A stretch of 47,628 nt of DNA from an uncultured Limnohabitans sp. (lineage in GTDB: Bacteria; Bacteroidota; Bacteroidia; Cytophagales; Cyclobacteriaceae), in contig CAZPKI010000001.1 in the NCBI GenBank assembly GCA_964587015.1, positions 1-47,628 of the forward strand. The letters are read 5' to 3'. Shown here one piece after another: positions 17,565 to 45,584 of this stretch. The notes beneath the pieces were generated by a model. It saw only the letters and a list, made by a program, of their open reading frames with translations, was not told the DNA's origin and made no database searches. The translations under genes were made by a program, and so were the position numbers. Position 1 is the first letter of the stretch. Every line of letters begins with the position of its first letter.

Positions 17565-19070
17565 ATGGCAACTGTATTAGCAACACCAGGCGTTTACATT
17601 GAAGAAAATAGCGCCTTTGCCTCCTCTGTTGTCCCAGTAGGGACGGCTATTCCCATTTTCCTGGGATATACGCAGAAGGCGGCTCGTGGAACAAAGTCTT
17701 TATCAAACGTTCCAACTCGAATTTCCTCATTTGCGGAATTTGAGCAATTCTTTGGAGGTTCTCCAAAAGTAAAATTCGAAATCAGTGCTGACGCGTCTAG
17801 TGTCAATGGCTACAAGTTGTCCGTTGATGCTTCTACACGTTTCTTGCTGCATTCTGCCGTAAAATTCTTCTATTCAAATGGTGGAGCAGATTGCTACATA
17901 TTGTCAGTAGGTGACTACAATTCTGGCATTAGCGCAAAAGATTTCAATGACGAAGCTACTGGTAAAGGATTACCTCAAGTATTGAAGTACAGCGAACCTA
18001 CTCTTCTAGTAATTCCTGAGGCGATTCTACTTGAGAAAGCAGAGTGTTTTGCTTTGCAGCAAGCTATGTTAATGCACTGCGGATATGCTACAAAGAGCCG
18101 TTTCGCTATTCTTGACGTTTATGACGGAGCTAAGGAAAGAACTTATGCTGACGATGACGTTATCAATCAGTTCAGAGAAGGTGTAGGCGCAAATTTCCTT
18201 CAGTGGGGTGCTGCTTATTATCCTTTCGTTCAGACCACAATCGTTTCTTCTGGTGATGTTAATTTCACAAACATCAGCAACACTGCTGACCTAATTGAAA
18301 TTTTGTCTCAAGAAGTTGATGAAGATTTGGCTGCTGATCGTATCAACCAAGCTAGAGCTAACGCAATCAAGTCAGAATTGGCTAAAATTGAGTCAGCTAC
18401 CACTAAAGAAGAAGTAAATTCTTTGCAAGCTACCTTAAAGGTGGTAAGTGGAAAATTAAATTCCATCTTAACTGCAATCTCCGAAAGTTTGAATTTGCTT
18501 CCTGCAAGTTCTGCTATGGCAGGTGTTTACACAATGGTTGATAGTTCAATTAACGTTGCAAAAGCTCCAGCTAACCTTTCTTTAGGTTCTGTAGTAAGCC
18601 CAAGTGTTCAAATCACAAGCGATACTCAAGAGGAGTTGAACCTTCCTTTGAACGGTAAGGCAATCAATGCTATCCGTTCTTTCCAAGGCAAAGGTGTACT
18701 AGTTTGGGGAGCGCGTACTTTGGACGGCAATAGCCAAGACTGGAGATACATCTCTGTACGTAGAACAATGACTTTCTTGGAGCAAAGTATTAAGGCAGCT
18801 GCAGAAGGTTTTGTATTTGAGCCAAACAACACGACTACTTGGTCAACGTTAAAGGCAACGGTAACTAACTTCTTGAGAAATCAATGGCAAGCTGGTATCT
18901 TGGCTGGTCAAAGCCCTGATGATGCTTTCTCTGTGGAGATTGGCTTAGGTGTTACAATGACGCCAAATGATATTCTAGATGGATTGATGAAAATGACCAT
19001 TAAAGTTGCAATCGTAAGACCAGCTGAATTCATTGTCATCACATTTGAGCAGCAACAACAAAAATCATAA
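17565..19070 (+). CDS. CIS contractile tail sheath (Afp2/3/4, Alg2-like)
   Basis: TPGVYIEE, TAIPIFLGYT, GAAYYP, KAPAN, VWGARTL, WRYISVRR, FVFEPN, RPAEFIVI. Confidence 0.95.
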   Translation: MATVLATPGVYIEENSAFASSVVPVGTAIPIFLGYTQKAARGTKSLSNVPTRISSFAEFEQFFGGSPKVKFEISADASSVNGYKLSVDASTRFLLHSAVKFFYSNGGADCYILSVGDYNSGISAKDFNDEATGKGLPQVLKYSEPTLLVIPEAILLEKAECFALQQAMLMHCGYATKSRFAILDVYDGAKERTYADDDVINQFREGVGANFLQWGAAYYPFVQTTIVSSGDVNFTNISNTADLIEILSQEVDEDLAADRINQARANAIKSELAKIESATTKEEVNSLQATLKVVSGKLNSILTAISESLNLLPASSAMAGVYTMVDSSINVAKAPANLSLGSVVSPSVQITSDTQEELNLPLNGKAINAIRSFQGKGVLVWGARTLDGNSQDWRYISVRRTMTFLEQSIKAAAEGFVFEPNNTTTWSTLKATVTNFLRNQWQAGILAGQSPDDAFSVEIGLGVTMTPNDILDGLMKMTIKVAIVRPAEFIVITFEQQQQKS

Positions 19071-19098
19071 TCAACTACTTTACTAAAATATACTAATT

Positions 19099-19569
19099 AT
19101 GGCAACACCAACCGCAGGAACAGGTGGAGTACAAGACCAATTTTGGCCCTTACCAAAGTTCTACTTCTCCGTTGATATCGGAGATCAGACCGATTTACCT
19201 TTTCAGGAAGTTTCAGGACTAGATATTGATGCAGACGTTATTGAATACAGACATGGAAATAGTCCAATACACTCTGTAATCAAAATGCCTGGATTAAAGA
19301 AATATGGCGATATCACTTTGAAGAAAGGTGTATTCACAACTGACAACAAGTTCTATGAGTGGATTTCTAAAATCAGCTTGAACACTTACGAAAGATTAAC
19401 TGTTGTTATTCGATTGTTGGACGAAGCTGGAGCGCCAAAAATGACTTGGACTTTGACCCATGCATTTGCTAAGCAAATCACTCCAACTGATATGAACTCA
19501 CAAAGCAGTGAGGCGGCTATCGAAACCATTGTGTTCACACACGAAGGATTGAGCATAGAAGCAGCTTAA
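19099..19569 (+). CDS. CIS inner tube protein (gp19 family, Afp1-like)
   Basis: WPLPKFYF, FQEVSGL, IEYRHG, KMPGLKKYGDITLKKG, AIETIVFTHEGL. Confidence 0.95.
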   Translation: MATPTAGTGGVQDQFWPLPKFYFSVDIGDQTDLPFQEVSGLDIDADVIEYRHGNSPIHSVIKMPGLKKYGDITLKKGVFTTDNKFYEWISKISLNTYERLTVVIRLLDEAGAPKMTWTLTHAFAKQITPTDMNSQSSEAAIETIVFTHEGLSIEAA

Positions 19570-19588
19570 TTGCTAGGTATTTCTATCT

Positions 19589-19642
19589 ATACCCGGTACA
19601 AATCTCAATAAACCTATTGAGATGCGTACTGGGTATTTTTTT
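19589..19642 (+). terminator. Intrinsic terminator after the sheath-tube pair
   Basis: ATACCCGGTAC-aa-ATCTCAATA / AACC loop / TATTGAGAT-gc-GTACTGGGTAT (one G-U pair), ending in a T run at 19636-19642. Confidence 0.8.
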
Positions 19643-19783
19643 GATTTGACTTTCCTTTCACCTTGAAAAGAAGAATCTTTACAAGAAAAATTTAAAAAAG
19701 TTTAAATCGTGTGTTCAAAGGATTTTATCCCTAGTTTTAATCCTTAGTTCTTGATTCTAACGCATTTATTTCTATTTTTGATT

Positions 19784-20008
19784 ATGGGAAAGTCGATATT
19801 GCAAGAATTATTGGTGGTTGTCTCTATCCTCCTTCTTTCGGTAGTTTGCCTGCCTATCTTTTTTATGTTCCTTTGGTTTGCCGATACCAGTAAGTCTATT
19901 TCTGATTTATTGTTTTTACCAACAATTTTAAGTGGAGTTGGTGTCCTTTTTTTTAGTTTGTATTTGGGTAGAATGGTATTTGTTTTTTTGAAATCAATTA
20001 AGCCTTAA
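19784..20008 (+). CDS. Small two-TM membrane protein
   Basis: Two hydrophobic segments and a basic C-terminus. ATG at 19784 preferred to TTG 19751; stop 13 nt before the cap gene. Confidence 0.6.
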   Translation: MGKSILQELLVVVSILLLSVVCLPIFFMFLWFADTSKSISDLLFLPTILSGVGVLFFSLYLGRMVFVFLKSIKP

Positions 20009-20021
20009 TTAAATAATTCAC

Positions 20022-20990
20022 ATGATTCATGTTGTCCTATCTTCTGTAGTTTCCACCTTGAATGAATACATTAGGAATGAATTGAATTTGCAGGAGGATG
20101 TGGTTATTTTAACGAATGCTGTTGACTTATCTGGAAATTTGAATTCTCAAATTGACAACAAATTGTGTCTTTTTTTACACAATTTAGATGAGGAGCGTGT
20201 GATACGAAATGGGGGCTACCAAACTTTTGCAGGGACCAATCCTCCTAAGCATTTCAATTTGCATGTGATGTTTGTGGCTAATTTTCCTGATCCAAATTAC
20301 CTTGAAGCCCTACGTTATATTTCATTAGTATTGGAGTTCTTTCAAGGTACGCAAGTCTTTGATAAATTTAATTTACCGACTCTTTCCACAAATGTGGAAC
20401 GATTGAGTTTTGAGTTCGTAAACTTCTCGTTTGATGAATTGAATAGTGTTTGGAGTTCTTTGGGGTTAAAATACATGCCCTCAGCTTCCTATAAAATCAA
20501 ACTTTTGAGTTTCACGAATAATTTGATTCGTGAAGAAGTTACTTCTGTCGGAATTTCAAATAATAAAAGGGGGTCTGGGCCAGTTGGCAACAATGGCTCT
20601 GATACTTCACAAGGAAATAATGGCACTTCAGGAAATCAGCCTCCGCCCATAATTCCTCGAGAAATGAATCCACTGGGTACTGTGGGGCTAATTAAAGATA
20701 TTCAGGATGATATGGCCGAAGATCCTATTGAGGACCAAATATCTTACTATCCATCAGGAGAGGATGAAGGTTCCTTTAGAGCGCCTAAACCAAAAGTCCC
20801 ATTAGACTCAGTTGGAAATGTGGATGATGCTCAGGATGCAATAATGGATAACCCTGGAGATACACAATATTCATCAGGTCCTTCAATACCTCCAATTAGA
20901 GAAAGAAGGCCAATAGATGATAACCAAATAATAAAGGATGTTGATGATCCTTTCTTGGATAATAATAGAAATAATAGTAGTATTGAGTAA
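20022..20990 (+). CDS. DUF4255/Pvc16-like tail cap (terminator) protein with C-terminal low-complexity extension
   Basis: LHNLDEE, NPPKHFNLHVMF, YLEALRYISLVLEFFQ, VWSSLGLKYMPSASYK in the first ~180 aa. Confidence 0.85.
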   Translation: MIHVVLSSVVSTLNEYIRNELNLQEDVVILTNAVDLSGNLNSQIDNKLCLFLHNLDEERVIRNGGYQTFAGTNPPKHFNLHVMFVANFPDPNYLEALRYISLVLEFFQGTQVFDKFNLPTLSTNVERLSFEFVNFSFDELNSVWSSLGLKYMPSASYKIKLLSFTNNLIREEVTSVGISNNKRGSGPVGNNGSDTSQGNNGTSGNQPPPIIPREMNPLGTVGLIKDIQDDMAEDPIEDQISYYPSGEDEGSFRAPKPKVPLDSVGNVDDAQDAIMDNPGDTQYSSGPSIPPIRERRPIDDNQIIKDVDDPFLDNNRNNSSIE

Positions 20991-21064
20991 TTGGGTTTTT
21001 TCAAATCATACGGGTTTAGTGAAATACGTTCCAATTTTCAATTAAATATTTCCTAGTGTAAAGG

Positions 21065-21907
21065 ATGGATAATTACCAAAGTTCATATCGATTTGTTACC
21101 AAATTCACTGAAGTTTTTTCATGTGTTTTTCTGCATGGGTATTACGATAGTGAGATTTGTACCGATTTGAGTTTTCAACCCTCATCCCGTACAAAATTCT
21201 TAATCAAAAATTACAACCTGATCTTCAAGCCTAGGCCTGGGGGATTTGTACTGGCAGTCAATTCTGACAAAGATTTTAGCAATCTTATTTACAAAGATCC
21301 TTTTGAATTGGATTTTGAGTTTAGATTCACTAATCCGCATTTTTTCTCTTTTACGGTTCTTTTAACAAATCCTGAAATTCGATATTTAATCGATGATAAT
21401 TTAGAATCTTCTGTTCAATTGAGTGCATTGGAGGGAGTAGCAGATCCAGAATTGGATAAACCAGGATTGTCTGGGATAATTAAAGTTAAACACGATCCTA
21501 ACTTTCCTATTTTACCTATTGTCAATCGATTAACAGACCGTTTTATTCCAAGACGTAAGCAGGTTTTTCTAACAAATCGGATGATTAAGCCAGTTTATAT
21601 ATGTTATTGTCCTGAAGAAACAATTGGACTTTTTGCGGGGATGACGATTGAAAATGAAGGTGAATTTAAGAATAGAGTTGAATTTGAACCACCACAGCTT
21701 ATTACCACAGATTCTGGCTTAACTGCATATAAATTTGTGGCAAAGCAGGAGCTGCCTATGAAATCAACTTGGAAAGGGTTCTTTAGACTATTACGTACCA
21801 ATCAATTGGGTGTTTATAAAAAAACACTCCCAAATCCAAGTCCACAGAGTATCAAATTTGATCCATTTGTAAACAGTTATATTTCTGAAAATTTCGTAAA
21901 ACTTTAA
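21065..21907 (+). CDS. Hypothetical CIS protein, candidate cap adaptor (Alg16B-like by position)
   Basis: Follows the DUF4255 gene. HGYY..DLSFQPS..T, NPHFFSFT and C-terminal LPNPSP resemble the gene usually paired with DUF4255 in Bacteroidota eCIS. Confidence 0.55.
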   Translation: MDNYQSSYRFVTKFTEVFSCVFLHGYYDSEICTDLSFQPSSRTKFLIKNYNLIFKPRPGGFVLAVNSDKDFSNLIYKDPFELDFEFRFTNPHFFSFTVLLTNPEIRYLIDDNLESSVQLSALEGVADPELDKPGLSGIIKVKHDPNFPILPIVNRLTDRFIPRRKQVFLTNRMIKPVYICYCPEETIGLFAGMTIENEGEFKNRVEFEPPQLITTDSGLTAYKFVAKQELPMKSTWKGFFRLLRTNQLGVYKKTLPNPSPQSIKFDPFVNSYISENFVKL

Positions 21908-22061
21908 ACTCATTTAGAAGTGGAGAGTAAATCAATCTAACCTCTGATTTTAACTTTTGAAGTTTAGAATGTAGCCTGCTATAAAAATGAGTAATATTTT
22001 CATGAGAAACTTTAGTACTAATTTAGTTCAAGGATTCAAGTAATAGAGAATGTTTTAAGCC

Positions 22062-22571
22062 ATGGTAAAAATGTTGCGTCCAAAAGATCCCCCGGTATCC
22101 TATAATTTCATGGTTGCTCTTGCTCCATCAACTACCCCAAGTTCAATGCTAGGGGCAGTTGCTTTAGCGAGTTTAGTTTTCGACGCTGCTTTCACCCAAA
22201 TTTCTGGATTAGGGGTACAGTTGAATTATACTCCAGTAAGAAGTGGAGGATACAACAACGAAGTATACCATCTGCCAGGTGGAGTAAATCGTGGTGCTTT
22301 GACCCTAAAAAGAGGATTAGCTTCCTTTGCATCCCCTTTGATGCAATGGTGTTTGGGAACAGCCTCAGGCTCAAATTTTATCGAACCGAAAACCATTGTT
22401 GTGATGCTTCAGGACAAAAATCCTAATTATCCACCAGTTATGACTTGGATGTTATACAATGCAATTCCAGTTAAATGGGAAATTGATGAATTAGATGCAA
22501 AAAAATCGGATATTGTGATTGAATCTATAGAAATTGTATTTTCAAATATGGATGTTGTTGGAACAAGTTGA
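22062..22571 (+). CDS. Second gp19-family protein, tube initiator (Afp5-like)
   Basis: PPVSYNFMV, DAAFTQISGL, LTLKRGL, AIPVKW, IVIESIEI. Confidence 0.88.
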   Translation: MVKMLRPKDPPVSYNFMVALAPSTTPSSMLGAVALASLVFDAAFTQISGLGVQLNYTPVRSGGYNNEVYHLPGGVNRGALTLKRGLASFASPLMQWCLGTASGSNFIEPKTIVVMLQDKNPNYPPVMTWMLYNAIPVKWEIDELDAKKSDIVIESIEIVFSNMDVVGTS

Positions 22572-22610
22572 TTCTCTACAAATAGCTCATATTTAATGTA
22601 TTAGAAGTAT

Positions 22611-22802
22611 ATGCCTGTAGAAATTAAACAGTTGATGGTTAAAGGGATTATGGAAGATGCCAATCAACCTTCCAGTGAATCTGCTACTCCTCGAATGGCG
22701 AAGGAAGAAGGGGGGAACTTGACCTATTCTGCCAAAAAACAACTGATTGATGAGTGTGTTCATGAGGTTATGGAGCGAATTAAAAAAATGAATGAATTGT
22801 AA
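22611..22802 (+). CDS. Small CIS protein (DUF5908/Afp6/Alg6 plug-like)
   Basis: MPVEIKQLMVKG N-terminus and LIDECVHEVMERI C-terminal helix; lies between tube initiator and LysM genes; TAATG overlap. Confidence 0.75.
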   Translation: MPVEIKQLMVKGIMEDANQPSSESATPRMAKEEGGNLTYSAKKQLIDECVHEVMERIKKMNEL

Positions 22803-23503: not shown

Positions 23504-23506
23504 TCC

Positions 23507-25306
23507 ATGGCTGCGGCAAAATCCCCTGATGATTCATTACAAACCGTCATTTCCTTTGAGGTAAAGGTAGGTGGAAGTGCCCTGCCCACAGGAATGGTAG
23601 TTTTGAAATTGCACGTTAAGTTGGAGGTAAATAAAATCGCCAGAGCATATATTTCAATTTTAGGAGGAAAATCCTATGAAAATCTGTTTCCAGAAAGTGA
23701 AGAAGCTATTTTCGCACCGGGTAAAGAGGTTGAAATATCTATTGGTTATGCGCAAAAAAATGTAAAAGTATTTTCTGGAATTATTACCAAGCATAGCCTT
23801 GACATTGGAACGAATTACCTAAGTTATTCTTCCCGAAATGTTCTTTTACTAGAAGCATCAGACAAGTCAATAAAAATGACTGTAGGTAAAAAATCTGAGA
23901 TTTATGAGACGAAAAAGGATAGTGAAATCATCACGACCTTACTTTCTACTGCAGGATTGACAAAAACTGTTACAGCAACAACTCTTACACACGATTTAAT
24001 TTCAAGACACAATTGCAGTGATTGGGAATTTATGCTCAACCGAGCCAAAGCCAATGGCATGGTTGTATTAAATGCAATGGGTGCGGTGACTGTAGAAGCG
24101 CCTAAGTCTTCGGGGACAGAAGTGTTAACAGTCACCTACGGAAAAGATATTAAGTCTTTTAAAGGTGATCTTAATGCAGGTACCCAGTTGCAGGGAGTCG
24201 AAGCCATTAATTACGATATCTACAATGAAACGGAAGTTAAACAAACAGGTGCAGACTCAAAGTTTGATATTCCTGGAAGTATTACGGGTTCAGAATTGGG
24301 AAAAGTAGCAGCCGCAACAACAGTTAGTTTAAACGTTCCAGTGCCTGTATTAACTCAAGAGCTTAAAGGGCATGCAGATGCATTATTGGCATCTAGTAGG
24401 TTGCGAAGAATGACAGGGGAAGTAAGTTTTCGGGGCAGCACTGATGTGACTCTAGGAGGCTATATAAAATTAGCTGGTTTCGGAAAGTTATTTAATGGAT
24501 TGGTGTATATCACAGGTGTGGAACATCTGGTTGAAAATGGGCAATATGTAACCAAAGTTTCTTTTGGATTAAAGCCTGAGTTTTTTTCAACTAATCCGCA
24601 CGAAGAATTGAATTTACTTCCACCGATTGCAGGTCTACATGTTGGAATCGTTAAAAAATTGGATGCGGACCCTGATAAAAAGAATAGAATTCAAGTAATG
24701 ATTCCCTCTTTAAAAAGTACTGGAAGCGGGATTTGGGCAATGTTAGGACATTTTCATGCGGGTAAAAATTCAGGTAGTTTTTTTGTTCCAGAGCTCAATT
24801 CAGAAGTGATTGTAGGATTTATCAATGATGATCCAAGATTCCCGGTAGTTTTAGGTTCTTTGTATAGTAAAAATAACACTACAGAAGAAAAATTCACAGC
24901 TGACAACTTCATTAAATCTATTGTTACTAAAGGAGGGACACGCTTGGAATTTGAAGATAAAGACAAGACCTTTAAAGTAATTACTCCTGGAAAAAACATG
25001 ATTTTTATCTCGGATAAAGACAAGGGAGTGAAAATTGAAGATCAAAATGGAAACACAATTGTAACTTCCGCTGATGGGATAAGTATGGATTCCGATAAGG
25101 ATATAAAAATCACAGCTGCTGGTAATTTAGAATTGAATGGAACCAAAGGGGTTAAAGTAACTTCATCTTCGGGCGATGTTACTGTAAGCGGAAAAAATGC
25201 AACCTTAAAAGGAAGTGCAAAAGTTGAAGTCAATGGGAGTGCTGGTGCAGATATCAAATCATCTTCAGCTATAAATATTAAAGGTTCAATGGTAAATGTT
25301 AATTGA
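23507..25306 (+). CDS. vgrG: VgrG-like central spike (Afp8-like)
   Basis: EVNKIARA, SDWEFMLNRA, DPDKKNRIQV, FFVPELNSEVIVGFINDDPRFPVVLGSLYS; beta-helical C-terminus ending IKGSMVNVN. Confidence 0.93.
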   Translation: MAAAKSPDDSLQTVISFEVKVGGSALPTGMVVLKLHVKLEVNKIARAYISILGGKSYENLFPESEEAIFAPGKEVEISIGYAQKNVKVFSGIITKHSLDIGTNYLSYSSRNVLLLEASDKSIKMTVGKKSEIYETKKDSEIITTLLSTAGLTKTVTATTLTHDLISRHNCSDWEFMLNRAKANGMVVLNAMGAVTVEAPKSSGTEVLTVTYGKDIKSFKGDLNAGTQLQGVEAINYDIYNETEVKQTGADSKFDIPGSITGSELGKVAAATTVSLNVPVPVLTQELKGHADALLASSRLRRMTGEVSFRGSTDVTLGGYIKLAGFGKLFNGLVYITGVEHLVENGQYVTKVSFGLKPEFFSTNPHEELNLLPPIAGLHVGIVKKLDADPDKKNRIQVMIPSLKSTGSGIWAMLGHFHAGKNSGSFFVPELNSEVIVGFINDDPRFPVVLGSLYSKNNTTEEKFTADNFIKSIVTKGGTRLEFEDKDKTFKVITPGKNMIFISDKDKGVKIEDQNGNTIVTSADGISMDSDKDIKITAAGNLELNGTKGVKVTSSSGDVTVSGKNATLKGSAKVEVNGSAGADIKSSSAINIKGSMVNVN

Positions 25307-25342: not shown

Positions 25343-25759
25343 ATGGCAGAAGAAAAGAGTTTCTTAGGTAGGGGTTGGTCATTTCCTGTGACTTTTAATA
25401 AGTCTCTAGGCAAAGTAAATATGGTTAGTGACGAAGTAGATATTCGACAAAGTTTGGAAATCTACCTTGCCACTAAGCGTGGGGAGCGGCTTCTTCGTCT
25501 TGCTTATGGATCATTAATGCACGAGTACATGTTTGAGAGAGCCACATACGGAAATTTGAATTTTCTTTGTGAGAGTTTGAAAAATGATTTGCGTGTTTAT
25601 GAACCTAGGATTATCGTCCATGGAGTGGACGTCGATTCCAAAAACATTAACGATGGCGTAGCACATTTTACGATTGATTACGAGATACAATCGACTAACG
25701 TGAGAGATAATATCGTTTATCCATTTTATATATTGGAAGGCACAAATATACCTGAATAA
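25343..25759 (+). CDS. gp25/GPW-like baseplate protein (Afp9-like)
   Basis: FLGRGWSFP, DIRQSL, GERL, YEPRI, NIVYPFYILEGT. Confidence 0.93.
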   Translation: MAEEKSFLGRGWSFPVTFNKSLGKVNMVSDEVDIRQSLEIYLATKRGERLLRLAYGSLMHEYMFERATYGNLNFLCESLKNDLRVYEPRIIVHGVDVDSKNINDGVAHFTIDYEIQSTNVRDNIVYPFYILEGTNIPE

Positions 25760-25764
25760 GCATT

Positions 25765-28700
25765 TTGGAAAATCTAAGTGATTTCAATACTGATCCTTCA
25801 AGGGCGCGTCAAAAAGACCCGCTAGATCCCCGATATTTTTTACCGGAGGAACGTACTTTGAGTGATTTCCTCAAATTTATCAATCGTTTATCAAAGCATG
25901 TAAACTTTTACGACGAGCGACTCGAGTTAAATGGAGATTGGTTTGATTTTTTTATTTCCAATGAACTTTTCTTGCTAGCTGAAATTGAGAATTTTGATTT
26001 AAAAGCTGCGGAAAAAGAAAAAACTGCAATTCTCCTTCAATTTGAGCGAACTGATGTTCTTGAGGAGAAAACCCTGCTGATCCAAAAACTTTTTGATCAA
26101 ATAAAAATTATGCTTCGTACGGTAGACCACTGGTATGGCCTGTCCTCCAAGTATAATAAAAAAAGAGAAAGTACTGGCCTCGAGAATGAGCTTGTTGGTG
26201 CAATTAGCTACCGTTGTAAAGCAGTTTATGACCAACTGCTGTTTCTTTCATCTGAATTAAAAGAATTAGGAAGTCCGATAGAACTAGTTATTGATGATCT
26301 ATCATTTAATCCGCTTTGGAATGCTCCTGAATCAAAAGCACCAAGTATTGGATGGGGTGCTGAACTTTTGGATGCCAATTACCTTTTAAAGCAATTGCTT
26401 TTACTTCATAGACCGATCTTCAAGACGATCGTTAACCTTACAGAGCGTTCGAAGCAGCTTTTTCGTGAAAATCTTTCCAATAAGCAAGATCATGAGCCGC
26501 AAATTGGCTTGATGATTGCTTTTTTTCATTTGTTTAGAGAGCTTCAGGAAGAAATAAATACCGTTCCAGATCGACTTCTCACGTATTATTTTGAACGTAT
26601 TCTAGGTCAATCCAGAGAAAATCAGGAAGCGGACATTGTAAATTGTTATGCGGATATAGATCCTGAAGTGGATCAAGTGAATATTCCAACTAATGCTCGT
26701 CTAATTGCGGGGCAAAATGAGTTTGGTCAAGATATTATTTACGAAGTTCAAAATAGTGTTTCACTTTCCTCTTTAAAATTGAAAAGTCTGTATACGATGT
26801 TTGTTTCACGAAATAAGCTCATCGATCCAGGCACTCCGTTTCAAACAGTAAACGGGATATATTACAAGAATATTTCCTTGGATAATGGATTTAAAGCCTT
26901 TCAAGCATTAGGAGAGGAACAACGTTTTTTGGATAAGGAAGCCAAAACCATGGAGGAGGTTGATATAGGATTTTCTATTTCGTCTCCTACCTTACGACTT
27001 GGTGGAGGTTACAGACATTTAGAGCTAGACTTTATATTCTTGACTGAAAGTTATCAATACTTTTTGGCAATGCTCTTGTCTATTTCTAGGACAAAAAATC
27101 AACTGCCTGAAGAAGTATTTCACCAGATTTTTACGGGCTCTTTAAGTTTACAACACACTACTGAAAAAGGCTGGTGTGAGGTACCCTCTTACGAGGTGGT
27201 TCCTCCAATGAGTTGGAATGAAAATAGTTTTAAACTTATAATTGATTTTGGTCCAGGACATCCTGCCATTACTCCATATAAAGAGGAGGTGCATGGGGAA
27301 GGATTAAACTTGGTACAGCCTGTTTTGAAGGTTCTCCTAAAAAATCAACATGTTTTTCACCCCTATTCTTTCTTGCAGTTTTTAGAATTGGAGCAGGTGA
27401 AGATCAGAGTTGATGTGAAGCAACTTAAAAACCTAAGCTTACAGAATAATTTTGGTTCTGTTGATTCCAACATCCCATTTGAATTATTTGGTGCAACTCC
27501 AAAAGTTGGAAGCTATGTTTTAATTAGCAACGAAGAGATCTTTTCAAAAGATTTAGAGAGTCTAAATGTAGGTTGGACCTATCATGGTCTACCCTTAGGT
27601 GAGGATATGAAATCCTACTTTTCAGGCTACCCATTTGGGATAGAAAATGATAGTTTTAAATTCAAAGTTCAAGCACTTTCTGACTATAGGTTTATGCCGA
27701 AGGATGAGAATCAATCGGTAATTATTTCTTTGTTTGACGAAAAGGATGGAAAAATTGCCACAGATCGGTACATCGATACTATAGACTTAGATGCTTTAGA
27801 AATACTACCGGATTACAATTTGAATACGGTAGAAACTAGGGAGCTCTTTTTTAATCAGGAAACTGGATTTTTAAAAATTGAGCTAGTTTCTCCAGCCATT
27901 GGATTTGGATTCGATGTCTACCCTACAGTTTATGCTAACGAAGTCACTAAGGCTACAAAGGCACAATTAGAAAATCCTAAATCGGTATTTTCAATGGAAG
28001 TGCCAAACCAGCCTTTTTCACCCATGGTGAAAGATGTTTTCATTGACTATTCCTCTTCTTCTGAGATAAACTTTTTGGGAACCAGATCTTTTTCTAATCA
28101 AACCAAAAAACAAGAAAACTTCATTCAAATTCATCCTTTTGGCAAGAAATTTTTGCTAAAAGATGGGATAGTAAATGAAAGCTCTTTTCTTCCATTCCTC
28201 GAACTTCAAGGTGCCTTGTACCTAGGATTGGAAACGAAGGAATTTGCGGAAGAATTTAGTATGCTTTTTCAAGTAGTTAAAAACAAGGGTGATTTTCAAG
28301 GTGATCCACCAAAGCTAGATTGGTTCTATTTGGCAAATGACAATTGGAAAGCATTTAAGAAAGAGGATATTTTATTTGATAGTAGCTTTGGCTTAACTCG
28401 TTCAGGGATTATTTCTTTCAAAAGTCCAAAAGATATCAGCCTGAATAACTTGGTGATGCCGAACGGTTTGTATTGGATTTGTTGCCGTACCAAAGATCAG
28501 CAACCCATGGCAAGTAGTATTTCAGGGATTTATTTAAATGCATTTTCGGCAAAAGCCGTATTGCAAGAGGGCGTGCATCATGACGCAGTACTACCTGCGT
28601 TTAAGATAGAATCTTTTCAGCAAGCCATACCTGGGATACTTGGTGTCACCCAGCCTATTCCATCATCTGGAGGAAGGGAAAGAGAAGACAAAAATCATTT

Positions 28701-38737: not shown

Positions 38738-40077
38738 AAGCGGATACTGAAAAGTTGATTCGACCTATTTTGCAAGATCTTGCTTGGTTAGAATCTATCT
38801 TGGATCTACGGATGAATACCTATTTTGAGGATTCAACTACTGAGTTCATTTTCCCAGATCCTCCTACCTGGCTAGGGGAAAAGACACCTTATTCCCAATT
38901 TATAAGTGAGCACAAATTGAATTTCACAGAGCGGGTTGTGTTTTTGATGAGTATGGTTCCTATCCTTAGTCCTCAATCCTTTGACTGCTTTTTTATTCAG
39001 AACAAGTCCATTGGAAGACCTTTTTCAGAATTTGGTGGAGTAGAGTCCAAGTCTCACAAGGGATTCATTCCTACCGTGGAAACAGCCAATTTTGTCTTAA
39101 ATGGGAAGGATATATTTAAAAGACTTGATTTGTACAAGGTCTTTTCGGAAGATCATTTTTTCTCTAAGTTTCAAGTGCTCAGTTTGAAGAAAAACTCTGA
39201 AACCGAATCGTTTTGGTCCAATAGCTTGCAGATTAATGAAGATTTTTTTTACCACTTGATTTCGGGAGAAAAGTTGGCACCAAAATTTTCCTCAGAATTT
39301 CCAGCCAAAGAGATTACCACTCGATTGCAAATCAATGATTTAGTGCTCAACAAGCAGTTGATGGATGAGTTGGATTTAATTTTAAACTGGATTCAAGTTA
39401 GGGAAGAGATAAAATCCTCTGAAAAGTTGCGAAAAAGTTTCAGAACAGGCTATAGAGCCTTATTTTATGGTCCCCCAGGTACAGGAAAGTCCCTTACAGC
39501 AGCCATACTTGGTAAAAGTTATGATTTACCCGTTTACCGAATTGACTTGTCTCAAGTCGTATCTAAATACATTGGGGAAACCGAAAAAAACCTTTCTAGG
39601 CTTTTGGATATAGCAGAGCATAAAAATTGGGTGTTATTTTTTGATGAAGCGGACTCCCTTTTCTCTAAGCGAACAGAAGTAAACGATTCAAAAGATAAAT
39701 ATGCAAATCAGGGCACTTCTTACCTGCTTCAGCGGTTGGAAGAATACGATGGATTAGTCATTTTGGCGACCAATCTTCGGCCGAATATTGATCGCGCATT
39801 TATTAGGCGCTTTCAATCCATTCTCTATTTCAACCTACCAACTGTAGATGAACGGATAAAATTATGGGAAAATTCGTTGAAAAATTTCACCATTTCTAAG
39901 GATGTTTCCATAAAGAAAATAGCCGAGAAATATGAAGTCTCTGGTGCATCTATAGGTAACGCCATTCAATTCTCTTGGTTGAGCTCTAAGCGGGATCTTA
40001 GAAATGAGATTTCTGCCTTAGATATTGAGGCAGGGCTCTTGCGTGAGATGGCTAAAGAAGGTAGGGCGGTAAAATAG
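38734..40077 (+). CDS. CIS AAA+ ATPase (Afp15-like)
   Basis: Walker A GPPGTGKS, VSKYIGETEKNL, Walker B LFFDEAD, SYLLQRLE, DRAFIRRF. ATG at 38734 overlaps the TMP stop (ATGA). Confidence 0.93.
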   Translation: MKADTEKLIRPILQDLAWLESILDLRMNTYFEDSTTEFIFPDPPTWLGEKTPYSQFISEHKLNFTERVVFLMSMVPILSPQSFDCFFIQNKSIGRPFSEFGGVESKSHKGFIPTVETANFVLNGKDIFKRLDLYKVFSEDHFFSKFQVLSLKKNSETESFWSNSLQINEDFFYHLISGEKLAPKFSSEFPAKEITTRLQINDLVLNKQLMDELDLILNWIQVREEIKSSEKLRKSFRTGYRALFYGPPGTGKSLTAAILGKSYDLPVYRIDLSQVVSKYIGETEKNLSRLLDIAEHKNWVLFFDEADSLFSKRTEVNDSKDKYANQGTSYLLQRLEEYDGLVILATNLRPNIDRAFIRRFQSILYFNLPTVDERIKLWENSLKNFTISKDVSIKKIAEKYEVSGASIGNAIQFSWLSSKRDLRNEISALDIEAGLLREMAKEGRAVK

Positions 40078-40181
40078 CGAGTACCCGAAATCATAATTTA
40101 ACTAAAGGAGTAATTTCTCTTTAAGAAACCTTAGATTGAGACATATTTGAACCAGTGAATCACCTATCAGTTTAGCCTAAA

Positions 40182-41270
40182 ATGTTTGATTATTGCTATT
40201 GGCCAGAAGGATTAGAGGTCGAACTAAAAAAGCAACTTGATAATTTCCATCATCAGGCTCAAATGCTAATTGATGGCCAGATGTTTTTGGAATTGGCCAA
40301 TAAAATACTCAAAGCCCAGGTCGCTGGTAAATACTTTGAGCTTATCATTTTATTACCCAAGGGGTATAGGACCCTTGAAAATGCAAATTTATTTCACCGA
40401 ATCACCCAAGCAGGTGCTAAAGTGGGGATAATTGAAATCACCGCTTTTGACGAGGAGGTTGAACAGTTTTCCATTTTTGATAACAGTTTATATTACAGCA
40501 CAAAGCGATTAAAAGGTGAAGTAGATTTCACAGAATTTTTTTTCAAAAAGCACCAGGATTTTGATAATTTAATGGATGTCAGCCGGCTGGTCAATTCGTA
40601 TTCACAGGAAATTAAATTGACTTTTACTGCAGAGAAGTATTTTGCAATAAAAGGGGAGGAGATAAGCATCTTTTGGGAATCCACAAATGCAAACTCAAAT
40701 ATCTTGACCCCAGGCAATCTGATGCTCGACACCAAGGGTGAAGAGCGAATTACGATTGGGGAAGATTCTTTGCTAACAATTACTTCCAAAAATGAAAAAA
40801 GTAAAACTTCTTTGTCTATTTTTATTAAGTGTATTGAGGTTGATCATTTGAGGTTGTCAATTTCGATTTTCAACAAGGAAATTGACGATTACATTCCAAT
40901 AGAATCTATTTCAAAAAACAAAGAAATATATGCAGTTTACCTGAGCGATGTAGTAAAAGTTGAATGGGTTTGCAAGCCTGGAACAACTCTTTTCGAATCT
41001 CGAATGGGAAAATTGAACAATATAGGAGTCCATAATTTTGTTTGTTTAGAAAAAATAAGTTTAAATTTTGAGATGCATATCTCAAATACCATTACACACA
41101 AGGGTATTGAATTTTATCCTGTATCTAGAGATGGTGGTGATATAGAACAAATTTCTTTGGAAGTGAGTGAGGGTAAGTCAATGAAACCCGATAATACGGA
41201 GTTGAAATCCTTACAAAAAGAAGCATCCTTTTTAACTAGACTATTATCAATATTTAGCTCAAAAAAGTAA
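40182..41270 (+). CDS. Hypothetical protein: degenerate PLD-like N-domain plus Ig-like domain
   Basis: 362-aa ORF without signal peptide. PLD-like pattern ending VEQFSIFD; FTAEK..IKGEEISIFWES Ig-like pattern. Domain calls are tentative. Confidence 0.55.
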   Translation: MFDYCYWPEGLEVELKKQLDNFHHQAQMLIDGQMFLELANKILKAQVAGKYFELIILLPKGYRTLENANLFHRITQAGAKVGIIEITAFDEEVEQFSIFDNSLYYSTKRLKGEVDFTEFFFKKHQDFDNLMDVSRLVNSYSQEIKLTFTAEKYFAIKGEEISIFWESTNANSNILTPGNLMLDTKGEERITIGEDSLLTITSKNEKSKTSLSIFIKCIEVDHLRLSISIFNKEIDDYIPIESISKNKEIYAVYLSDVVKVEWVCKPGTTLFESRMGKLNNIGVHNFVCLEKISLNFEMHISNTITHKGIEFYPVSRDGGDIEQISLEVSEGKSMKPDNTELKSLQKEASFLTRLLSIFSSKK

Positions 41271-41271
41271 A

Positions 41272-42345
41272 ATGGGATTTGGGGATTTCTTTTTATTTTG
41301 CTCAGGTGTAAGTAAACCGGTTTTGGATAAATGTCCTGATTCCGAAAAAATAAAGCATGTCAGTATTGGGGCATCGGTTTTATTTACCGGCATTCTAGCC
41401 ATGCTATCTTCCTATTTTGCATTTAGTCTTATTTTTGAAGCCTATTTTCTTAATTTTTTTCTGGCGTTTTTTTGGGGCTTGATTATCTTCAATCTTGACC
41501 GATACATCGTTGCCACGCTCAGAAAGAAAGGTGATTTTTTTAGAGAAGTACTTCAAATTAGTCCACGTTTATTTCTATCGACACTGATAGCCTTGGTGGT
41601 TTCCAAACCGCTAGAATTACAGCTTTTTAAATCTGAAATTGAGCAAAATCTCAATGAAAAAATGGAGACGCGAATTACAGTTGCAGAACAGGAATACGCT
41701 ACTGCTCTTACAAACATAGATGAGGAAAAGAAAAAGTTAGACGTACAACTTCGCGAGTTTTTTGATTTAAAAGAATTTTACTACCAAGAGTACAAGTGCG
41801 AGTGTGATGGCACCTGTGGTACGGGTAGGTATGGCAGTGGAAAAGAATGCGAACGAAAGCAGAAGAAATACGAAGATTTTATTCTAGAGTATGAATCCAA
41901 AGAGCTTGACATTCGAGAAAGTAAAATGGCTCTGGAGAAAAGTAAGGGCGATAGATACAACTTATTTCAAGAAGATAAGGAAAACATCAAGGCAAACTTT
42001 TCCTTGGGATTACTTGCTAGGCTTCAGGCATTGCATAATTTAGAAAGTTTGGCGCCTTGGTTGATTACCTTGATGATTCTTTTTGTTGAAATTGCGCCAG
42101 TTTTGACTAAATTGTTTGCTTCAAAAGGACCGTATGATGATTTTTTAGCCCTAGAAGAAAATAATTTTAAAATGGAATACATCAATAACATGTACCAAAC
42201 GGGGCATCAAGTTGAGCAAGGATATTCCAGTAAGTTGAGAGAAGTACAAAGTATCAAAAAAGAACTTCTTTCGGATAAACAAAAGAAAGTTCAAGAATTG
42301 TATAGGGACCTTGGTAGAGAGATTACCAAACAAATAAATAAGTGA
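41272..42345 (+). CDS. DUF4407 membrane/coiled-coil protein
   Basis: FCSG..CP..E, IIFNLDRYIV, PRL..VVSKPLELQLF..EI, CECDGTCGTG..G..C, GLLARLQAL, GPYD. Confidence 0.85.
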   Translation: MGFGDFFLFCSGVSKPVLDKCPDSEKIKHVSIGASVLFTGILAMLSSYFAFSLIFEAYFLNFFLAFFWGLIIFNLDRYIVATLRKKGDFFREVLQISPRLFLSTLIALVVSKPLELQLFKSEIEQNLNEKMETRITVAEQEYATALTNIDEEKKKLDVQLREFFDLKEFYYQEYKCECDGTCGTGRYGSGKECERKQKKYEDFILEYESKELDIRESKMALEKSKGDRYNLFQEDKENIKANFSLGLLARLQALHNLESLAPWLITLMILFVEIAPVLTKLFASKGPYDDFLALEENNFKMEYINNMYQTGHQVEQGYSSKLREVQSIKKELLSDKQKKVQELYRDLGREITKQINK

Positions 42346-43616
42346 TGACGTCTACCAAATTTGCGCTATTAGCCATTTTTTCAACCTTCTACTTCAATTG
42401 TAGCAGATTGGTTGCAGGTGGAATCTTTCCTTTGGGAGCTTCATCCCCCTTTGGTATTCAGGATACGCTACTTTCTCAAACTTTCCAATCCGAAAATGAT
42501 TTTAGCTACTTTATTGCGAATGAATTTGGTGTTACAGAAAATATAGAGCAAGTAAACAAGCAAAGAATAGACAGCTTGTACCAGGTTCTGAATAAAGATA
42601 AAAAAATCCTAATCCCTAAAAAGGACCTCATAGATTTTTTAGGATATACACTTGAAGCTCCAGTTGCTAAGGAGGTGGCTTCTCAGACGGTTTCAATAGA
42701 TTCAAAAAAAAATGAATTCCGATTGGAGCTGGAGGCAATGGAGGGTGATTTTTTTAGACTTAATTATTCTGTCATTAATGGGTTCATTCAAAGTATTGGA
42801 CCAGCAGCCATGGTAGATGTATTGCTCAATGAGGTAAGTGTAGCCCGATCCTTAACGAAGAAAAGAGGAAAGTTCGTGGAATTAGAATTTGAGGCGCTTA
42901 CATCAGGGAAGTTAGAAATTGTGATACGAAATGTGGGCCCGTTACCTGAAGAGGGGAATCTGCAAGTATTTGTGACTCCCAGAAAAGAGCGCATCAATTT
43001 GAAAGAAATAAGGAATAAGGTTTTAGTTAAGAAGATGGAAGATACCATAGTCCAAGACACTATATTTCAAACCATTATAGATCAACAGGTTGTATTGGCT
43101 CAAAGGGCCAACCTAAAAGGGAGCTCTTTTTTTCAGCAAAAAATTGATTTTAGTTCCGATCAAGAAGTTTTAGGATTTTCAGTCTTTTTTTATCCGTTCT
43201 CGGAAAAAGAAAACCTCCAAGTTTTCCGAAGAGAAACCTACCGAGAAGATCCTTTAGAAGACTTTTCCTCAAAGGAATTAGTTGGAAGATCCTTTACATA
43301 TCTTCCTGAATATTCGATTCCTTTCCTGACTTACACCGTTACCGACGACAATTCAAAAGTCTTGTGGTCCAACAATTTGGATTCTTACCTTACTAGTTGG
43401 GGAATAAGCCCCAATAGTAAAGGTAATTACGCATTTTTTAAGGCTAAGGAAAATATGGCAAATACCGCTATCTTGGTAAGATTTTTGAATTCTTCCGAAT
43501 TGTACGATTTGGATTTTGGATTAAAAATTGTCACCCTATCTGTCAAAAGATTTAAAATCATGCAGGAGCTTGATGTTGAGGAATTTGAAGAAACTATACT
43601 GTTGTCTTTGCTATGA
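42342..43616 (+). CDS. Exported hypothetical protein, beta-rich
   Basis: Hydrophobic N-terminus; 4-nt overlaps with both neighbours. Confidence 0.7.
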   Translation: MMTSTKFALLAIFSTFYFNCSRLVAGGIFPLGASSPFGIQDTLLSQTFQSENDFSYFIANEFGVTENIEQVNKQRIDSLYQVLNKDKKILIPKKDLIDFLGYTLEAPVAKEVASQTVSIDSKKNEFRLELEAMEGDFFRLNYSVINGFIQSIGPAAMVDVLLNEVSVARSLTKKRGKFVELEFEALTSGKLEIVIRNVGPLPEEGNLQVFVTPRKERINLKEIRNKVLVKKMEDTIVQDTIFQTIIDQQVVLAQRANLKGSSFFQQKIDFSSDQEVLGFSVFFYPFSEKENLQVFRRETYREDPLEDFSSKELVGRSFTYLPEYSIPFLTYTVTDDNSKVLWSNNLDSYLTSWGISPNSKGNYAFFKAKENMANTAILVRFLNSSELYDLDFGLKIVTLSVKRFKIMQELDVEEFEETILLSLL

Positions 43617-45346
43617 AAAATGTTGATTTAAAGAACCTCTGCCTTTTTGTTTTTATTGCCTTCGCTGTTGTGGCTTGTAAAGAAGTGGCTACTTTAAAGT
43701 CAAGCACTAGACGGGTATCTTCAGAGCTCAAAACCATGCAAAATAGCTCAAAGAAATTGATGGGGTTTTTGGGTGTCAAAGATTCTTCTGCTCAGAATAG
43801 TGATAGTTTGGCCAACACTTATGCACCCTTAAACCAAAAGGTTTTTTTTAATAAATACGACTTCCTTTACGATGCACTGAACGGGGATAAGACCAACCAA
43901 TACCTGCACTCCTTAACGTACGATTCCACTACTGAATTGTATATAAATCAGCGGATGGACAAGCGGTTTCTGAGAGAGGATACGGAGGTTTACACCTGGT
44001 ATCCTTATTGGATGGGGGATGTTTGGAAGAGTTATGATTTCAATCTGATCTCTAGCATTTCGTTTTTATCCTACAACATCGACCCAAAAACAGGAAGCTA
44101 TTTGAACCCCGCTCAAATAAAACAGTGGAGAGAAACTGATTTATTGGATTCTGCAAAGATACACAAGACTAAAGTCCTGCTCAGTTTGGCATTGGAGGGT
44201 GAAGAAAACCATCTCGAATTTCTCAAAAATGAGAAATCATGGACTACCACGCTTGACTCAATTACAGTTTTGCTGAAAGAAAGAGATGCTGATGGAATAG
44301 AGGTCGAGTTTATAGACATTCCCCTAGAACTAGAACCCAAATTCTTAGATTTTGTAGCCCAACTTAAAGAAAATCTGAGTTATCGTTTTATTACCAAAAA
44401 GTTGACTTTATCCTTAGTAATCCCAGCAGCCCCTGACAAATTTCCATTTGACTTGAGGAAGTTAGATGAGTCTGTCGATTTATTCATTGTTAAGGGTTTG
44501 GATTACCATGAGGAAGATGGCACTGTGGCTGCAGTAGCCCCATTACGAAATGAAACCGCCGGTGGTCCAAGTTTGGAAAATACCCTTCTCACTTACTTGG
44601 ATAGGGGCTTGAATGCAGAAAAATCGATTTTAGCGTTGCCTCTCTATGGATCTCAATGGTCAGGGACTTTTGATCCAGAGGAAGGATTTTACACCACTAA
44701 CTTTGAAAGAAAAGTAACGCTTTCTGAGGTGAATCGAGTCTTCCAGTCTAAAGACAGCATTTACAAGATTGAGCCTATCCTGGATGAGACGACCATGACC
44801 CAGTATTTTTTCTTGGAGTTTCAAGACAATACCTCCATAGAAGGCTGGTATGACGATTCGTTAACGTTATCAAAGAAAATGGATTATGCCTTGGTCAATA
44901 AGTTTAAAGGGGTAGGCTTATGGGCTCTGGGATACGACTTGGGAAAAAATGAGGTATGGGAGGTAGTGGCAAAAAAGTTTACTGGAAATATGGTCCTAAT
45001 CAAAGATCCAATCAAAGAATTGGATGGATATCCACTACGGATCACTTCTTTTTTCCAAACCTACAAAACAATATTTGTGGCCACTTTCTTATTAATCACC
45101 CTTGCGATCATTATTGGATTGGTTATTGCCTTTTCTGATTGGCGATTTAGAGAAACTATTTTGGCAAGCCAACTCTACAGTTCGATTACTTTATCCTTTT
45201 TTTGCCTGCTATTAATTTGGATTTCCACCATTTTTGGCTGGTTAAATAGTGGAACTTGGGGTTATGTTCTATCATTTTTTGCAGGTGCAGGAATTTACTA
45301 TTTGGTGAGGCGATATGGAGGAATGATAAAAATTAACAAGCCCTAA
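43613..45346 (+). CDS. GH18-fold lipoprotein with altered catalytic motif and C-terminal TM helices
   Basis: Lipobox VVAC; WYPYW, ADGIEVEF, LDYH, LALPLYG, WYDD, GVGLWALGYD; three C-terminal hydrophobic helices. Confidence 0.85.
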   Translation: MKNVDLKNLCLFVFIAFAVVACKEVATLKSSTRRVSSELKTMQNSSKKLMGFLGVKDSSAQNSDSLANTYAPLNQKVFFNKYDFLYDALNGDKTNQYLHSLTYDSTTELYINQRMDKRFLREDTEVYTWYPYWMGDVWKSYDFNLISSISFLSYNIDPKTGSYLNPAQIKQWRETDLLDSAKIHKTKVLLSLALEGEENHLEFLKNEKSWTTTLDSITVLLKERDADGIEVEFIDIPLELEPKFLDFVAQLKENLSYRFITKKLTLSLVIPAAPDKFPFDLRKLDESVDLFIVKGLDYHEEDGTVAAVAPLRNETAGGPSLENTLLTYLDRGLNAEKSILALPLYGSQWSGTFDPEEGFYTTNFERKVTLSEVNRVFQSKDSIYKIEPILDETTMTQYFFLEFQDNTSIEGWYDDSLTLSKKMDYALVNKFKGVGLWALGYDLGKNEVWEVVAKKFTGNMVLIKDPIKELDGYPLRITSFFQTYKTIFVATFLLITLAIIIGLVIAFSDWRFRETILASQLYSSITLSFFCLLLIWISTIFGWLNSGTWGYVLSFFAGAGIYYLVRRYGGMIKINKP

Positions 45347-45353
45347 TTTAAAG

Positions 45354-45584
45354 ATGAACAAAATCGCAAAAGAGGTTCTCTTTTTCTTTCTGTTTTCCTA
45401 CCTAGCAATTTGGATTTGTTTCCCTGTCCTTATTGTTATGGATCCCAAGGCTTCTTCCCCTATTTGGAGTCCATTGGAGGAGGTATACCTTATTCAACTT
45501 TTCTTTTTTGTGTGGTTGGTAATCCTTCTTGCCTTGTACGCGCTTCGACTGCTTGTATTTTTTGTAATCAAAAAACTCGAATAA
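45354..45584 (+). CDS. Small two-TM membrane protein
   Basis: Starts 7 nt after the GH18 stop; two hydrophobic segments; resembles the 19784-20008 product. Confidence 0.65.
   Translation: MNKIAKEVLFFFLFSYLAIWICFPVLIVMDPKASSPIWSPLEEVYLIQLFFFVWLVILLALYALRLLVFFVIKKLE

Follow-up and report, generated by a model that had tools for sequence, protein, structure and literature searches.

A SalCIS-like contractile injection system of Bacteroidota is inherited together with a module of envelope-protein genes

The window analysed here, a stretch of 47,628 nucleotides (nt) from an uncultured bacterium filed as Limnohabitans sp. and placed in the Cyclobacteriaceae (assembly GCA_964587015.1, contig CAZPKI010000001.1, positions 1 to 47,628), carries a contractile injection system (CIS) followed by a module of genes for envelope proteins. 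The CIS, which belongs to an aquatic Algoriphagus, is a real, complete and intact phage-tail-like injection machine. Among solved structures it is by sequence most similar to SalCIS of Salmonella enterica subsp. salamae (PMC13266070) and not to AlgoCIS, and the module genes likely anchor it to the cell envelope. Our preferred reading, which we hold to be probable with some reservation, is that of a cell-retained, inner-membrane-docked injector resembling the type VI secretion system subtype iv (T6SS-iv) and SalCIS, with the module as anchor and probably as trigger. The window takes up the first 47.6 kb of C1, a contig of 61 kb in a 2.18-Mb assembly (G000) that is 72.9% complete; C52, C106 and C12 are other contigs of the same genome. 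Comparisons were carried out with 123 Algoriphagus genomes (the genus set) and with 31 related loci, of which 22 lie beyond the genus (extended from a set of 80 and picked for closeness and long contigs) and 9 were added to them. An even draw of 400 complete Bacteroidota served as an unbiased check on module co-occurrence because most of the 31 loci had helped to build the profiles. Sources available only in part are cited as "part text".

Between 17565 and 40077, the genes for sheath, tube, a small membrane protein, cap, cap adaptor, Cis5, plug, Cis7, VgrG, gp25, Cis11, Cis13, Cis12, tape measure and AAA ATPase are all intact and on the + strand, as listed below (aa, amino acids). The near-complete structural set with one sheath gene described in the first-pass annotation is thus confirmed.

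17565..19070, + strand: Cis2 contractile sheath, single copy, 501 aa (Pfam sheath; best PDB match SalCIS 9r9h, E 9e-145, in one full-length stretch; next AlgoCIS 7adz, 4e-94)
19099..19569, + strand: Cis1 inner tube (PF06841, E 2e-41)
19751..20008, + strand: small two-helix membrane protein before the cap, putatively accessory, maybe a holin (hydropathy; synteny)
20022..20990, + strand: Cis16A cap (Pvc16_N, E 1e-30)
21065..21907, + strand: Cis16B cap adaptor (profile A7: SalCis16b E 2e-20, Alg16B 6e-18, tCIS All3326 2e-17)
22062..22571, + strand: Cis5 tube initiator (PF06841; NCBIfam CIS5 below cut-off)
22611..22802, + strand: Cis6 plug, 63 aa (DUF5908, E 6e-11; plug role suggested by position and by size relative to Alg6, PMC8894135)
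22802..23503, + strand: Cis7 tube initiator (CIS_tube, E 3e-26)
23507..25306, + strand: Cis8 VgrG-like spike (best PDB match SalCis8 9rce_F, E 3e-121; no PAAR gene after it)
25343..25759, + strand: Cis9 gp25-like sheath initiator (PF04965)
25765..29514, + strand: Cis11 wedge, 1249 aa, of cage-forming length (best matches SalCis11 9rce_A, 1323 aa, E 2e-79; Alg11 7e-68; tCIS 2e-64)
29517..30254, + strand: Cis13 short fibre, 245 aa, without transmembrane (TM) helix (profile match to tCIS Cis13, model, hydropathy)
30280..33063, + strand: Cis12 wedge, 927 aa (weak N-terminal TIGR02243 match; position kept in related loci)
33056..38737, + strand: Cis14 tape measure, 1893 aa, with a variable 94-aa repeat at 34688-35445 (CIS_TMP, E 2e-87)
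38674..40077, + strand: Cis15 AAA+ ATPase (PF00004)

SalCIS provided the best PDB match for the sheath, Cis11, the spike and the cap adaptor. The sheath bit scores were 487 for SalCIS versus 320 for AlgoCIS, and the top three PDB matches of the sheath were SalCIS, AlgoCIS and tCIS, ahead of PVC and Afp, as expected for clade Ib. Cap adaptor and plug, two further traits of this clade, are both present, and Cis11 is predicted to be of the extended, cage-forming type from its length and its long matches to SalCis11 and tCIS Cis11. A role of Cis15 in cargo loading is suggested by homology (bioRxiv 10.64898/2026.05.27.728243, part text). Pfam and NCBIfam scans of the island proteins revealed no TssJLM-type membrane complex, TssA or ClpV; a tape measure and a cap are found instead. 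The system has in common with SalCIS the single sheath, the cap with its adaptor, the plug, the long, predictably caged Cis11, a Cis13 between Cis11 and Cis12, a long tail, and a protein combining a signal, a SleL/GH18-like domain and TM helices (SalCis20, with three TM helices there). Unlike SalCis20, the GH18/TM protein is here shorter (577 aa) and devoid of the catalytic Glu; unlike in SalCIS, tip and cargo are encoded in trans, and seven or so extra co-inherited envelope genes are present that go unmentioned in the description of the 18 open reading frame (ORF) operon (PMC13266070). SalCIS was seen close to the inner membrane, with none detected outside the cells, and its cluster is defined by Cis13, Cis20 and the Cis11 extension (PMC13266070). 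The general kind, a clade Ib CIS that associates with the membrane and combines a Cis13 fibre with a membrane protein of hydrolase fold, was described in 2026 (PMC13266070), and the earlier suggestion of an undescribed system can be maintained for the larger module, for which no published description was found, but not for the kind itself. Nor is one sheath gene atypical, as had been proposed, AlgoCIS and SalCIS having one each (PMC8894135, PMC13266070). AlgoCIS, from Algoriphagus machipongonensis in the same genus (PMC8894135), also has a single sheath, cap adaptor, plug, cage and DUF4157 cargo; it differs in being free and released, about 130 nm long, with a 526-aa tape measure, an Alg19 fibre and both PAAR and cargo in the locus, and its sheath match is more distant.

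The ORF that follows the ATPase gene starts 104 nt after it, and the next four ORFs overlap their neighbours or are at most 7 nt away, in agreement with the coupled operon first proposed. The cassette extends beyond 45584, with an nSTAND1 gene from 46115 and then a TonB-type receptor gene outside the window.

40182..41270, + strand: module gene 1, 362 aa, no signal or TM helix, predicted cytoplasmic, no family (family scans, hydropathy)
41272..42345, + strand: module gene 2, DUF4407 four-helix membrane protein with a long extramembrane segment (PF14362, E 1e-64; hydropathy)
42342..43616, + strand: module gene 3, 424 aa, predicted exported, with jelly-roll (GOLD/CBM-like) domains and a long two-strand ribbon (model pLDDT 81, pTM 0.48)
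43613..45346, + strand: module gene 4, SalCis20-like GH18/TM protein, 577 aa (PF00704; YdhD and YaaH matches; TM pattern, motif column)
45354..45584, + strand: small two-helix membrane protein after the GH18 gene (hydropathy, synteny)
46115..47628, + strand: nSTAND1 NTPase-TM-coiled coil-WD40 protein, first 504 aa in the window (PF20703, E 2e-33)
C1:49300-52176, outside the window: TonB-type (TonB-plug) receptor/barrel (family scan of island proteins)

In the 400 Bacteroidota, the 362-aa family gave one long match, in one of the five CIS loci with a full-length Cis13, and five other genomes match a short Ig-like segment only. DUF4407 alone is no marker, since a second DUF4407 gene (C12, 32% identity) stands among unrelated genes of this genome. 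The model of the 424-aa protein shows an N-terminal hydrophobic helix and jelly-roll domains, with a GOLD domain match of Z 13.2 (root-mean-square deviation, rmsd, 1.5 over 90 residues); Foldseek returned generic jelly-roll matches only (TM-score about 0.2), and the shared fold shows no function. The GH18 protein starts with a hydrophobic, lipobox-like signal ending in Cys, followed by a domain nearest to spore YdhD/YaaH/SleL and by C-terminal membrane helices, two above threshold here and three in many homologues. At the motif position that we take to be that of the catalytic Glu, the residue is replaced here and in 5 other rows of the alignment. The architecture of SalCis20 (signal, hydrolase fold and three TM helices) is thus recognised by domain order and SleL/YaaH similarity rather than by direct comparison with 9R9A, which was not among the PDB matches listed (best 60 of 136 in one search). 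In G150 a GH18/TM homologue (L167:14015-16171) has an extra N-terminal segment which, judged by eye, looks like an OmpA-type peptidoglycan-binding domain.

The nSTAND1 gene runs past the window across a stretch of 100 N, and the full length in relatives is 1025-1066 aa; a broken gene was considered and rejected, the N-run being a scaffold gap. The nSTAND proteins consist of an NTPase, one membrane helix, about 170 Ala/Glu/Lys-rich residues and then WD40, a layout that predicts a periplasmic WD40 propeller on a long stalk. In most close relatives the island holds a second nSTAND-WD40 gene and an MFS-like gene of 830-860 aa. The island would thus encode cytoplasmic, inner-membrane, periplasmic and outer-membrane parts, as predicted from the protein sequences and as a trans-envelope apparatus would need. 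Further genes (about 190-200 aa, 650-910 aa and about 1180 aa) recur beside the nSTAND, TonB and MFS genes in G148, G149, G144 and G159 and may be more module or antenna parts.

Cis13 was assigned from its position between Cis11 and Cis12 and from homology with Cis13 of tCIS. A 42-sequence Cis13 profile matched residues 1-47 of All3316 (E 7e-6), which is the Cis13 of tCIS (PMC8894136, part text), as well as Bdellovibrio fibre shafts. The model (pLDDT 80) comprises a beta shaft and a C-terminal beta-sandwich head, and the tCIS match suggests that the N-terminus binds the baseplate, the homologous domain of the Anabaena protein having this function (PMC8894136, part text). The head aligned with a phage gp9-type chain (Z 8.7, rmsd 2.9 over 108 residues), tied with tailspike heads (Z 8.5). 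Hydropathy analysis revealed no hydrophobic segment, whereas tCIS Cis13 anchors by its own membrane helix (PMC8894136, part text). A short Cis13, of the Aasi_0556 type and proposed as an inner-membrane anchor, is also carried by Amoebophilus T6SS-iv and Bacteroides BIS (PMC12210884, part text). Cis13 is predicted to be an adaptor to the membrane module. No Cis13 relative was found in viral contigs. A complex prediction with three Cis13 and two TM parts of the GH18 protein scored 0.20 against a mark of 0.32, the controls did not fold, and the result was used neither way.

Among 10 stretches from kin, 4 reach past kdsB, and all of these have gldH next and no island. This direct kdsB-gldH junction in four close kin indicates that the structural genes and the module come and go together, and sets the island limits after kdsB (16967) and before gldH (C1:52642); the downstream cassette, nSTAND1 and the TonB-plug receptor lie within it. 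The GC content of C1:17000-52600 is 37% versus 44% genome-wide. Cis13 matched 30/123 genus genomes, in two groups. The gene at 42342 is present in 14/123, namely 13 with a full Cis13 of at least 72% identity and G007, whose locus is split over contigs, all of them with this CIS type; the other Cis13 group (about 40% identity) has a GH18/TM gene of 780-820 aa right after the tape measure. nSTAND1 was detected in none of 44 genus genomes without this CIS type and in 3/4 with it. In the 31 loci, we counted GH18/TM genes in 26, nSTAND in 19, the 42342 family in 15, the intact four-gene block in 13, a TonB-type barrel in 10 and MFS-like genes in 8. The order of the block is kept in these 13 loci, all of which also carry nSTAND, and its place is behind the ATPase gene (5 loci), ahead of the cap gene (6) or between these two genes (2). 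The hosts include Belliella aquatica, Mongoliibacter ruber, Fulvivirga, Marivirga, Chitinophagales, Saprospiraceae and Flavobacteriaceae. The four-gene block and the nSTAND-TM-WD40, TonB-type barrel and MFS-like genes therefore move with this CIS across Cytophagales, Chitinophagales and Flavobacteriales, with rearranged order, and the synteny check proposed for the downstream operon came out in its favour: the module co-occurs with the CIS in the proportions given above and is absent from CIS-less kin. In the even draw, a full-length Cis13 was found in 5 genomes (a sixth has the N-terminus only), each with a GH18/TM gene in the same locus; with generic GH18 matches in 48/400, GH18 by itself is not a marker. 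A quick sheath tree of 37 rows, without named reference sequences, placed the four-gene block within one clade of 22 rows (support 83). Kin do not count as independent cases, and we attach no statistic to the co-occurrence. Mongoliibacter ruber (G140; L077, L200-L201) carries two Cis13-type systems, one with the full module, whose tape-measure region is broken into several ORFs, and one with a large GH18/TM gene only, which makes it a natural comparison.

The same data bear on a second explanation, in which membrane contact is made through the GH18/TM protein only and the nSTAND, WD40, TonB and MFS genes form no channel but a co-inherited sensing circuit, which would control expression or set off firing against the own cell and its death, as in the case of Streptomyces CIS or tCIS. 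STAND-TM-WD40 is, partly on general knowledge, a sensor architecture; these genes often form a separate, divergent unit of variable number, and minimal loci do without them. Yet, in spite of many rearrangements, they have remained within the structural operon or next to it, even between tube genes or directly after Cis12, and nSTAND1 was not found without a CIS in the genus genomes searched, so that we judge this explanation rather improbable.

The locus has no PAAR gene, the VgrG-gp25 gap being 36 nt, and no DUF4157 gene. The absence of tip and toxin genes that had been noted is therefore correct for the locus but not for the genome. A gene for a PAAR-like DUF4280 protein, a divergent PAAR type (PMC8651086, part text), is found at G000:C106:1003-1389 (L216) and is 72-80% identical to CIS-adjacent DUF4280 genes of Belliella (G139), G143 and G149. 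Classic PAAR (PF05488 and PAAR proteins of relatives) was not found in G000 or in five other PAAR-less genomes. Among 38 genomes, DUF4280 was present in 14/15 with a PAAR-less locus, in 1/8 with PAAR in the locus and, of 13 kin where the CIS was not found, in two as an intact gene and in a third as a split one (G105, G016, G003), 2 fragmentary genomes remaining unclassed. These orphan genes suggest a loss of the island after the tip gene had moved, and the distribution indicates a recurring swap of tip type, from PAAR in the locus to DUF4280 in trans. A DUF4157 gene of 693 aa lies at G000:C52:2161-4242, beside a 166-aa YbjN-like gene; the N-terminal part of its product matches genes inside related CIS loci, and a homologue of the YbjN-like gene adjoins a DUF4157-type gene in G159. 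Because the C106 and C52 genes match CIS-linked genes of relatives, tip and cargo are most likely supplied in trans; genome-wide, the PAAR-like tip and DUF4157 cargo of clade Ib are thus present, and their use by this CIS is suggested by linkage in relatives. The C52 islet (902-4854, L215) is low in GC (38% versus 45%) and also holds, divergent from the Gly/Ala-rich DUF4157 gene, a gene of 279 aa whose N-terminus is of low complexity, as in CIS cargo; the YbjN-like product is a possible chaperone or immunity protein.

Scattered tip and cargo genes could also be what is left in a streamlined lineage of a decaying island that no longer works. Kin have lost the island, some of them keeping an orphan or split DUF4280, and two module genes are missing from this genome. 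On the other hand, every ORF is intact and has counterparts conserved in 13 related genomes, the tip has not been lost but exchanged for another, and RNA-library contigs from close strains (mostly 90-99% alike) span the locus in 4/4 runs, 3 from freshwater and 1 from an estuary, a weak argument given possible DNA carry-over. We consider decay very unlikely. Summed depth over sheath and tube contigs was far above that of the flanks in 3/4 runs, although contig depth cannot rank genes; it is only a hint of expression, as DNA may be present. A promoter and terminator scan stayed at chance level (17 versus 24 expected and 8 versus 6.7 expected).

The tape measure had been called very long and repeat-expanded. 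The 94-aa unit (282-nt repeat) is real: this locus has 4 copies of it, three closer relatives have 6-7 and four others 0-2. A length of 1893 aa is long compared with the 526 aa of AlgoCIS but mid-range for its family (about 820-3200 aa). Since the copy number varies, tape measures of close relatives range from 1605 to 2178 aa, which predicts tails of about 370-500 nm. With a ratio of 0.229 nm per residue (bioRxiv 10.64898/2026.05.27.728243, part text), the tail here is predicted to measure about 430 nm, or about 410 nm by the cross-system slope of the same paper, the overall prediction being about 400-430 nm. This is near the 420 nm of the envelope-spanning Aureispira T6SS-iv (bioRxiv 2024.01.29.577165, part text), and was counted in favour of a cell-retained system; SalCIS measures about 600 nm (PMC13266070). 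The Aureispira system is likewise a Bacteroidota clade Ib CIS, with a tape-measure-set length, a caged baseplate and DUF4157 effector candidates, and its trans-envelope complex and antenna have been imaged, their genes being unnamed in the text (bioRxiv 10.1101/2024.01.29.577165, part text). Unlike Aureispira, the present host is not known as filamentous or predatory. Amoebophilus T6SS-iv is described as devoid of a trans-envelope complex (bioRxiv 2024.01.29.577165, part text).

The structural gene set, the island limits and the linked inheritance of the module are direct observations; from them we infer how the cell-retained injector might dock at the membrane, contact its partners, be triggered, use its cargo and reach a target. 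A tube of about 400-430 nm (1893 aa at 0.22-0.23 nm per residue) with a DUF4280 tip would assemble, and Cis15 would load DUF4157 cargo, tip and cargo both being encoded in trans. Cis13 fibres would bind the cytoplasmic face of the GH18/TM protein, possibly with the 362-aa soluble protein and DUF4407. Without its catalytic acid, the GH18 domain would grip peptidoglycan instead of cleaving it, and the exported jelly-roll rod would carry the scaffold further outwards. A contact signal from outside might be linked to firing by the nSTAND-TM-coiled coil-WD40 protein together with the TonB-type outer-membrane barrel, whereupon the long tube would pass through the envelope of its own cell into a touching one. 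The first-pass idea of a long-tailed, cell-anchored CIS with its own envelope genes thus keeps its basis in a cassette that lies in the island, co-occurs with the CIS and is rearranged with it across three orders, but loses the argument from a missing tip and toxin, which fails because both genes exist elsewhere in the genome.

Several points weigh against cell retention. The docking of SalCis13 to SalCis20 is only a model, and reviewers called the anchoring speculative (PMC13266070, part text). The loci compared are kin picked for similarity, and most profile matches fall on profile-building loci. The GH18/TM gene is missing from the stretch read in 5/31 loci, some of them ended by contig ends, and is the sole module member in many Cis13 loci; this genome and G102 are without the second nSTAND and the MFS-like gene, so that the module is modular. 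Furthermore, the catalytic Glu is kept in 12/18 aligned GH18 homologues, indicating that lytic activity may be ancestral, and both head and shaft of Cis13 bear a further resemblance to tailspike and Bdellovibrio adhesin domains, as would suit a released particle with a fibre for target binding. Such a particle, a released extracellular CIS like AlgoCIS, would use Cis13 as its target-binding fibre, while GH18 and the two small two-helix proteins would open the envelope for release. Clade Ib does include released systems (PMC8894135), two membrane genes are of holin size, and the GH18 relatives YaaH and SleL act on peptidoglycan. But the protein found here has no catalytic Glu and, like SalCis20, tethers its GH18 domain to the membrane, 10 locus proteins gave no match to any PHROG family (lytic families included), and the conserved nSTAND-WD40, barrel and jelly-roll genes would be left unexplained. 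Release is for these reasons regarded as unlikely.

Returning to the cell-retained injector, the module may be the so-far unnamed envelope-spanning part seen in predatory relatives. More specifically, the 362-aa, DUF4407, jelly-roll rod, GH18/TM, nSTAND, TonB-type barrel and MFS-like genes could encode the non-TssJLM trans-envelope and trigger complex of Bacteroidota T6SS-iv, in which the outer-membrane barrel, via a periplasmic WD40 propeller, would prompt the cytoplasmic STAND NTPase to fire a 400-nm injector; we put this forward tentatively, as possible but doubtful. If true, small planktonic Algoriphagus, Flavobacteriaceae and Chitinophagales would possess a contact weapon of the ixotrophy type. 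For the step from an eCIS-like particle to a cell-anchored secretion system, SalCIS offers one membrane protein only; the present locus adds a small conserved set of candidates from the inner membrane, the periplasm and the outer membrane, and the cultured, non-pathogenic carriers Belliella aquatica (CGMCC 1.12479) and Mongoliibacter ruber (DSM 27929) make the reading testable. No paper was found on the larger module, although supplements or figures of the SalCIS and ixotrophy (Aureispira) work may name some of its genes. Papers mentioning DUF4407 included none on CIS by title or abstract; among the matches listed, no paper contains DUF4407 or nSTAND, and none was found that combines at least four of the terms STAND NTPase, WD40, TonB-dependent, contractile injection and Bacteroid. 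The main text of PMC8213781 contains no TonB, WD40 or glycoside hydrolase.

Minor features of the structural genes were also recorded. A second tube gene (74-78% identical) directly follows the first in G006, G009 and G018; as many as four tube genes, or a tube fusion of 815 aa (G155), occur in other loci. The small membrane gene at 19751..20008 is kept in close relatives, Belliella and Mongoliibacter, and its product has no Pfam or PHROG match; a relationship with the other small TM gene (45354..45584) was considered, and none was detectable. The cap has a low-complexity, Pro/Asp/Asn-rich tail of about 140 aa (window 20550-20990) in the closest relatives only, and is 183 aa long without it in several relatives. 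In G102 (C4) a 308-aa transposase-like ORF is intergenic between kdsB and the sheath gene, just upstream of the latter; the Aureispira system is reportedly switched off by insertion sequences.

Envelope cassettes had been noted on both flanks, and this holds downstream, within the island, but not upstream, where the genes are unrelated core genome. The upstream cassette (window 11805-16151) comprises a lipoprotein, proteins of 191 and 279 aa and an 817-aa leucine-rich repeat (LRR) protein. Its 191-aa gene occurs in 117/123 genus genomes and in 82/82 complete ones, and its product, though without a family, shows 86-99% identity in almost every Algoriphagus genome searched. The lipoprotein/LRR cassette was rejected as part of the CIS, since it stays when the island is absent, and is a highly conserved envelope system without known family. 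Further upstream (window 1874-8541), genes for planctomycete-type cytochrome c (PSD1/PSCyt), DUF1501 and SIS proteins lie beside GH20; they are ordinary and syntenic in relatives.

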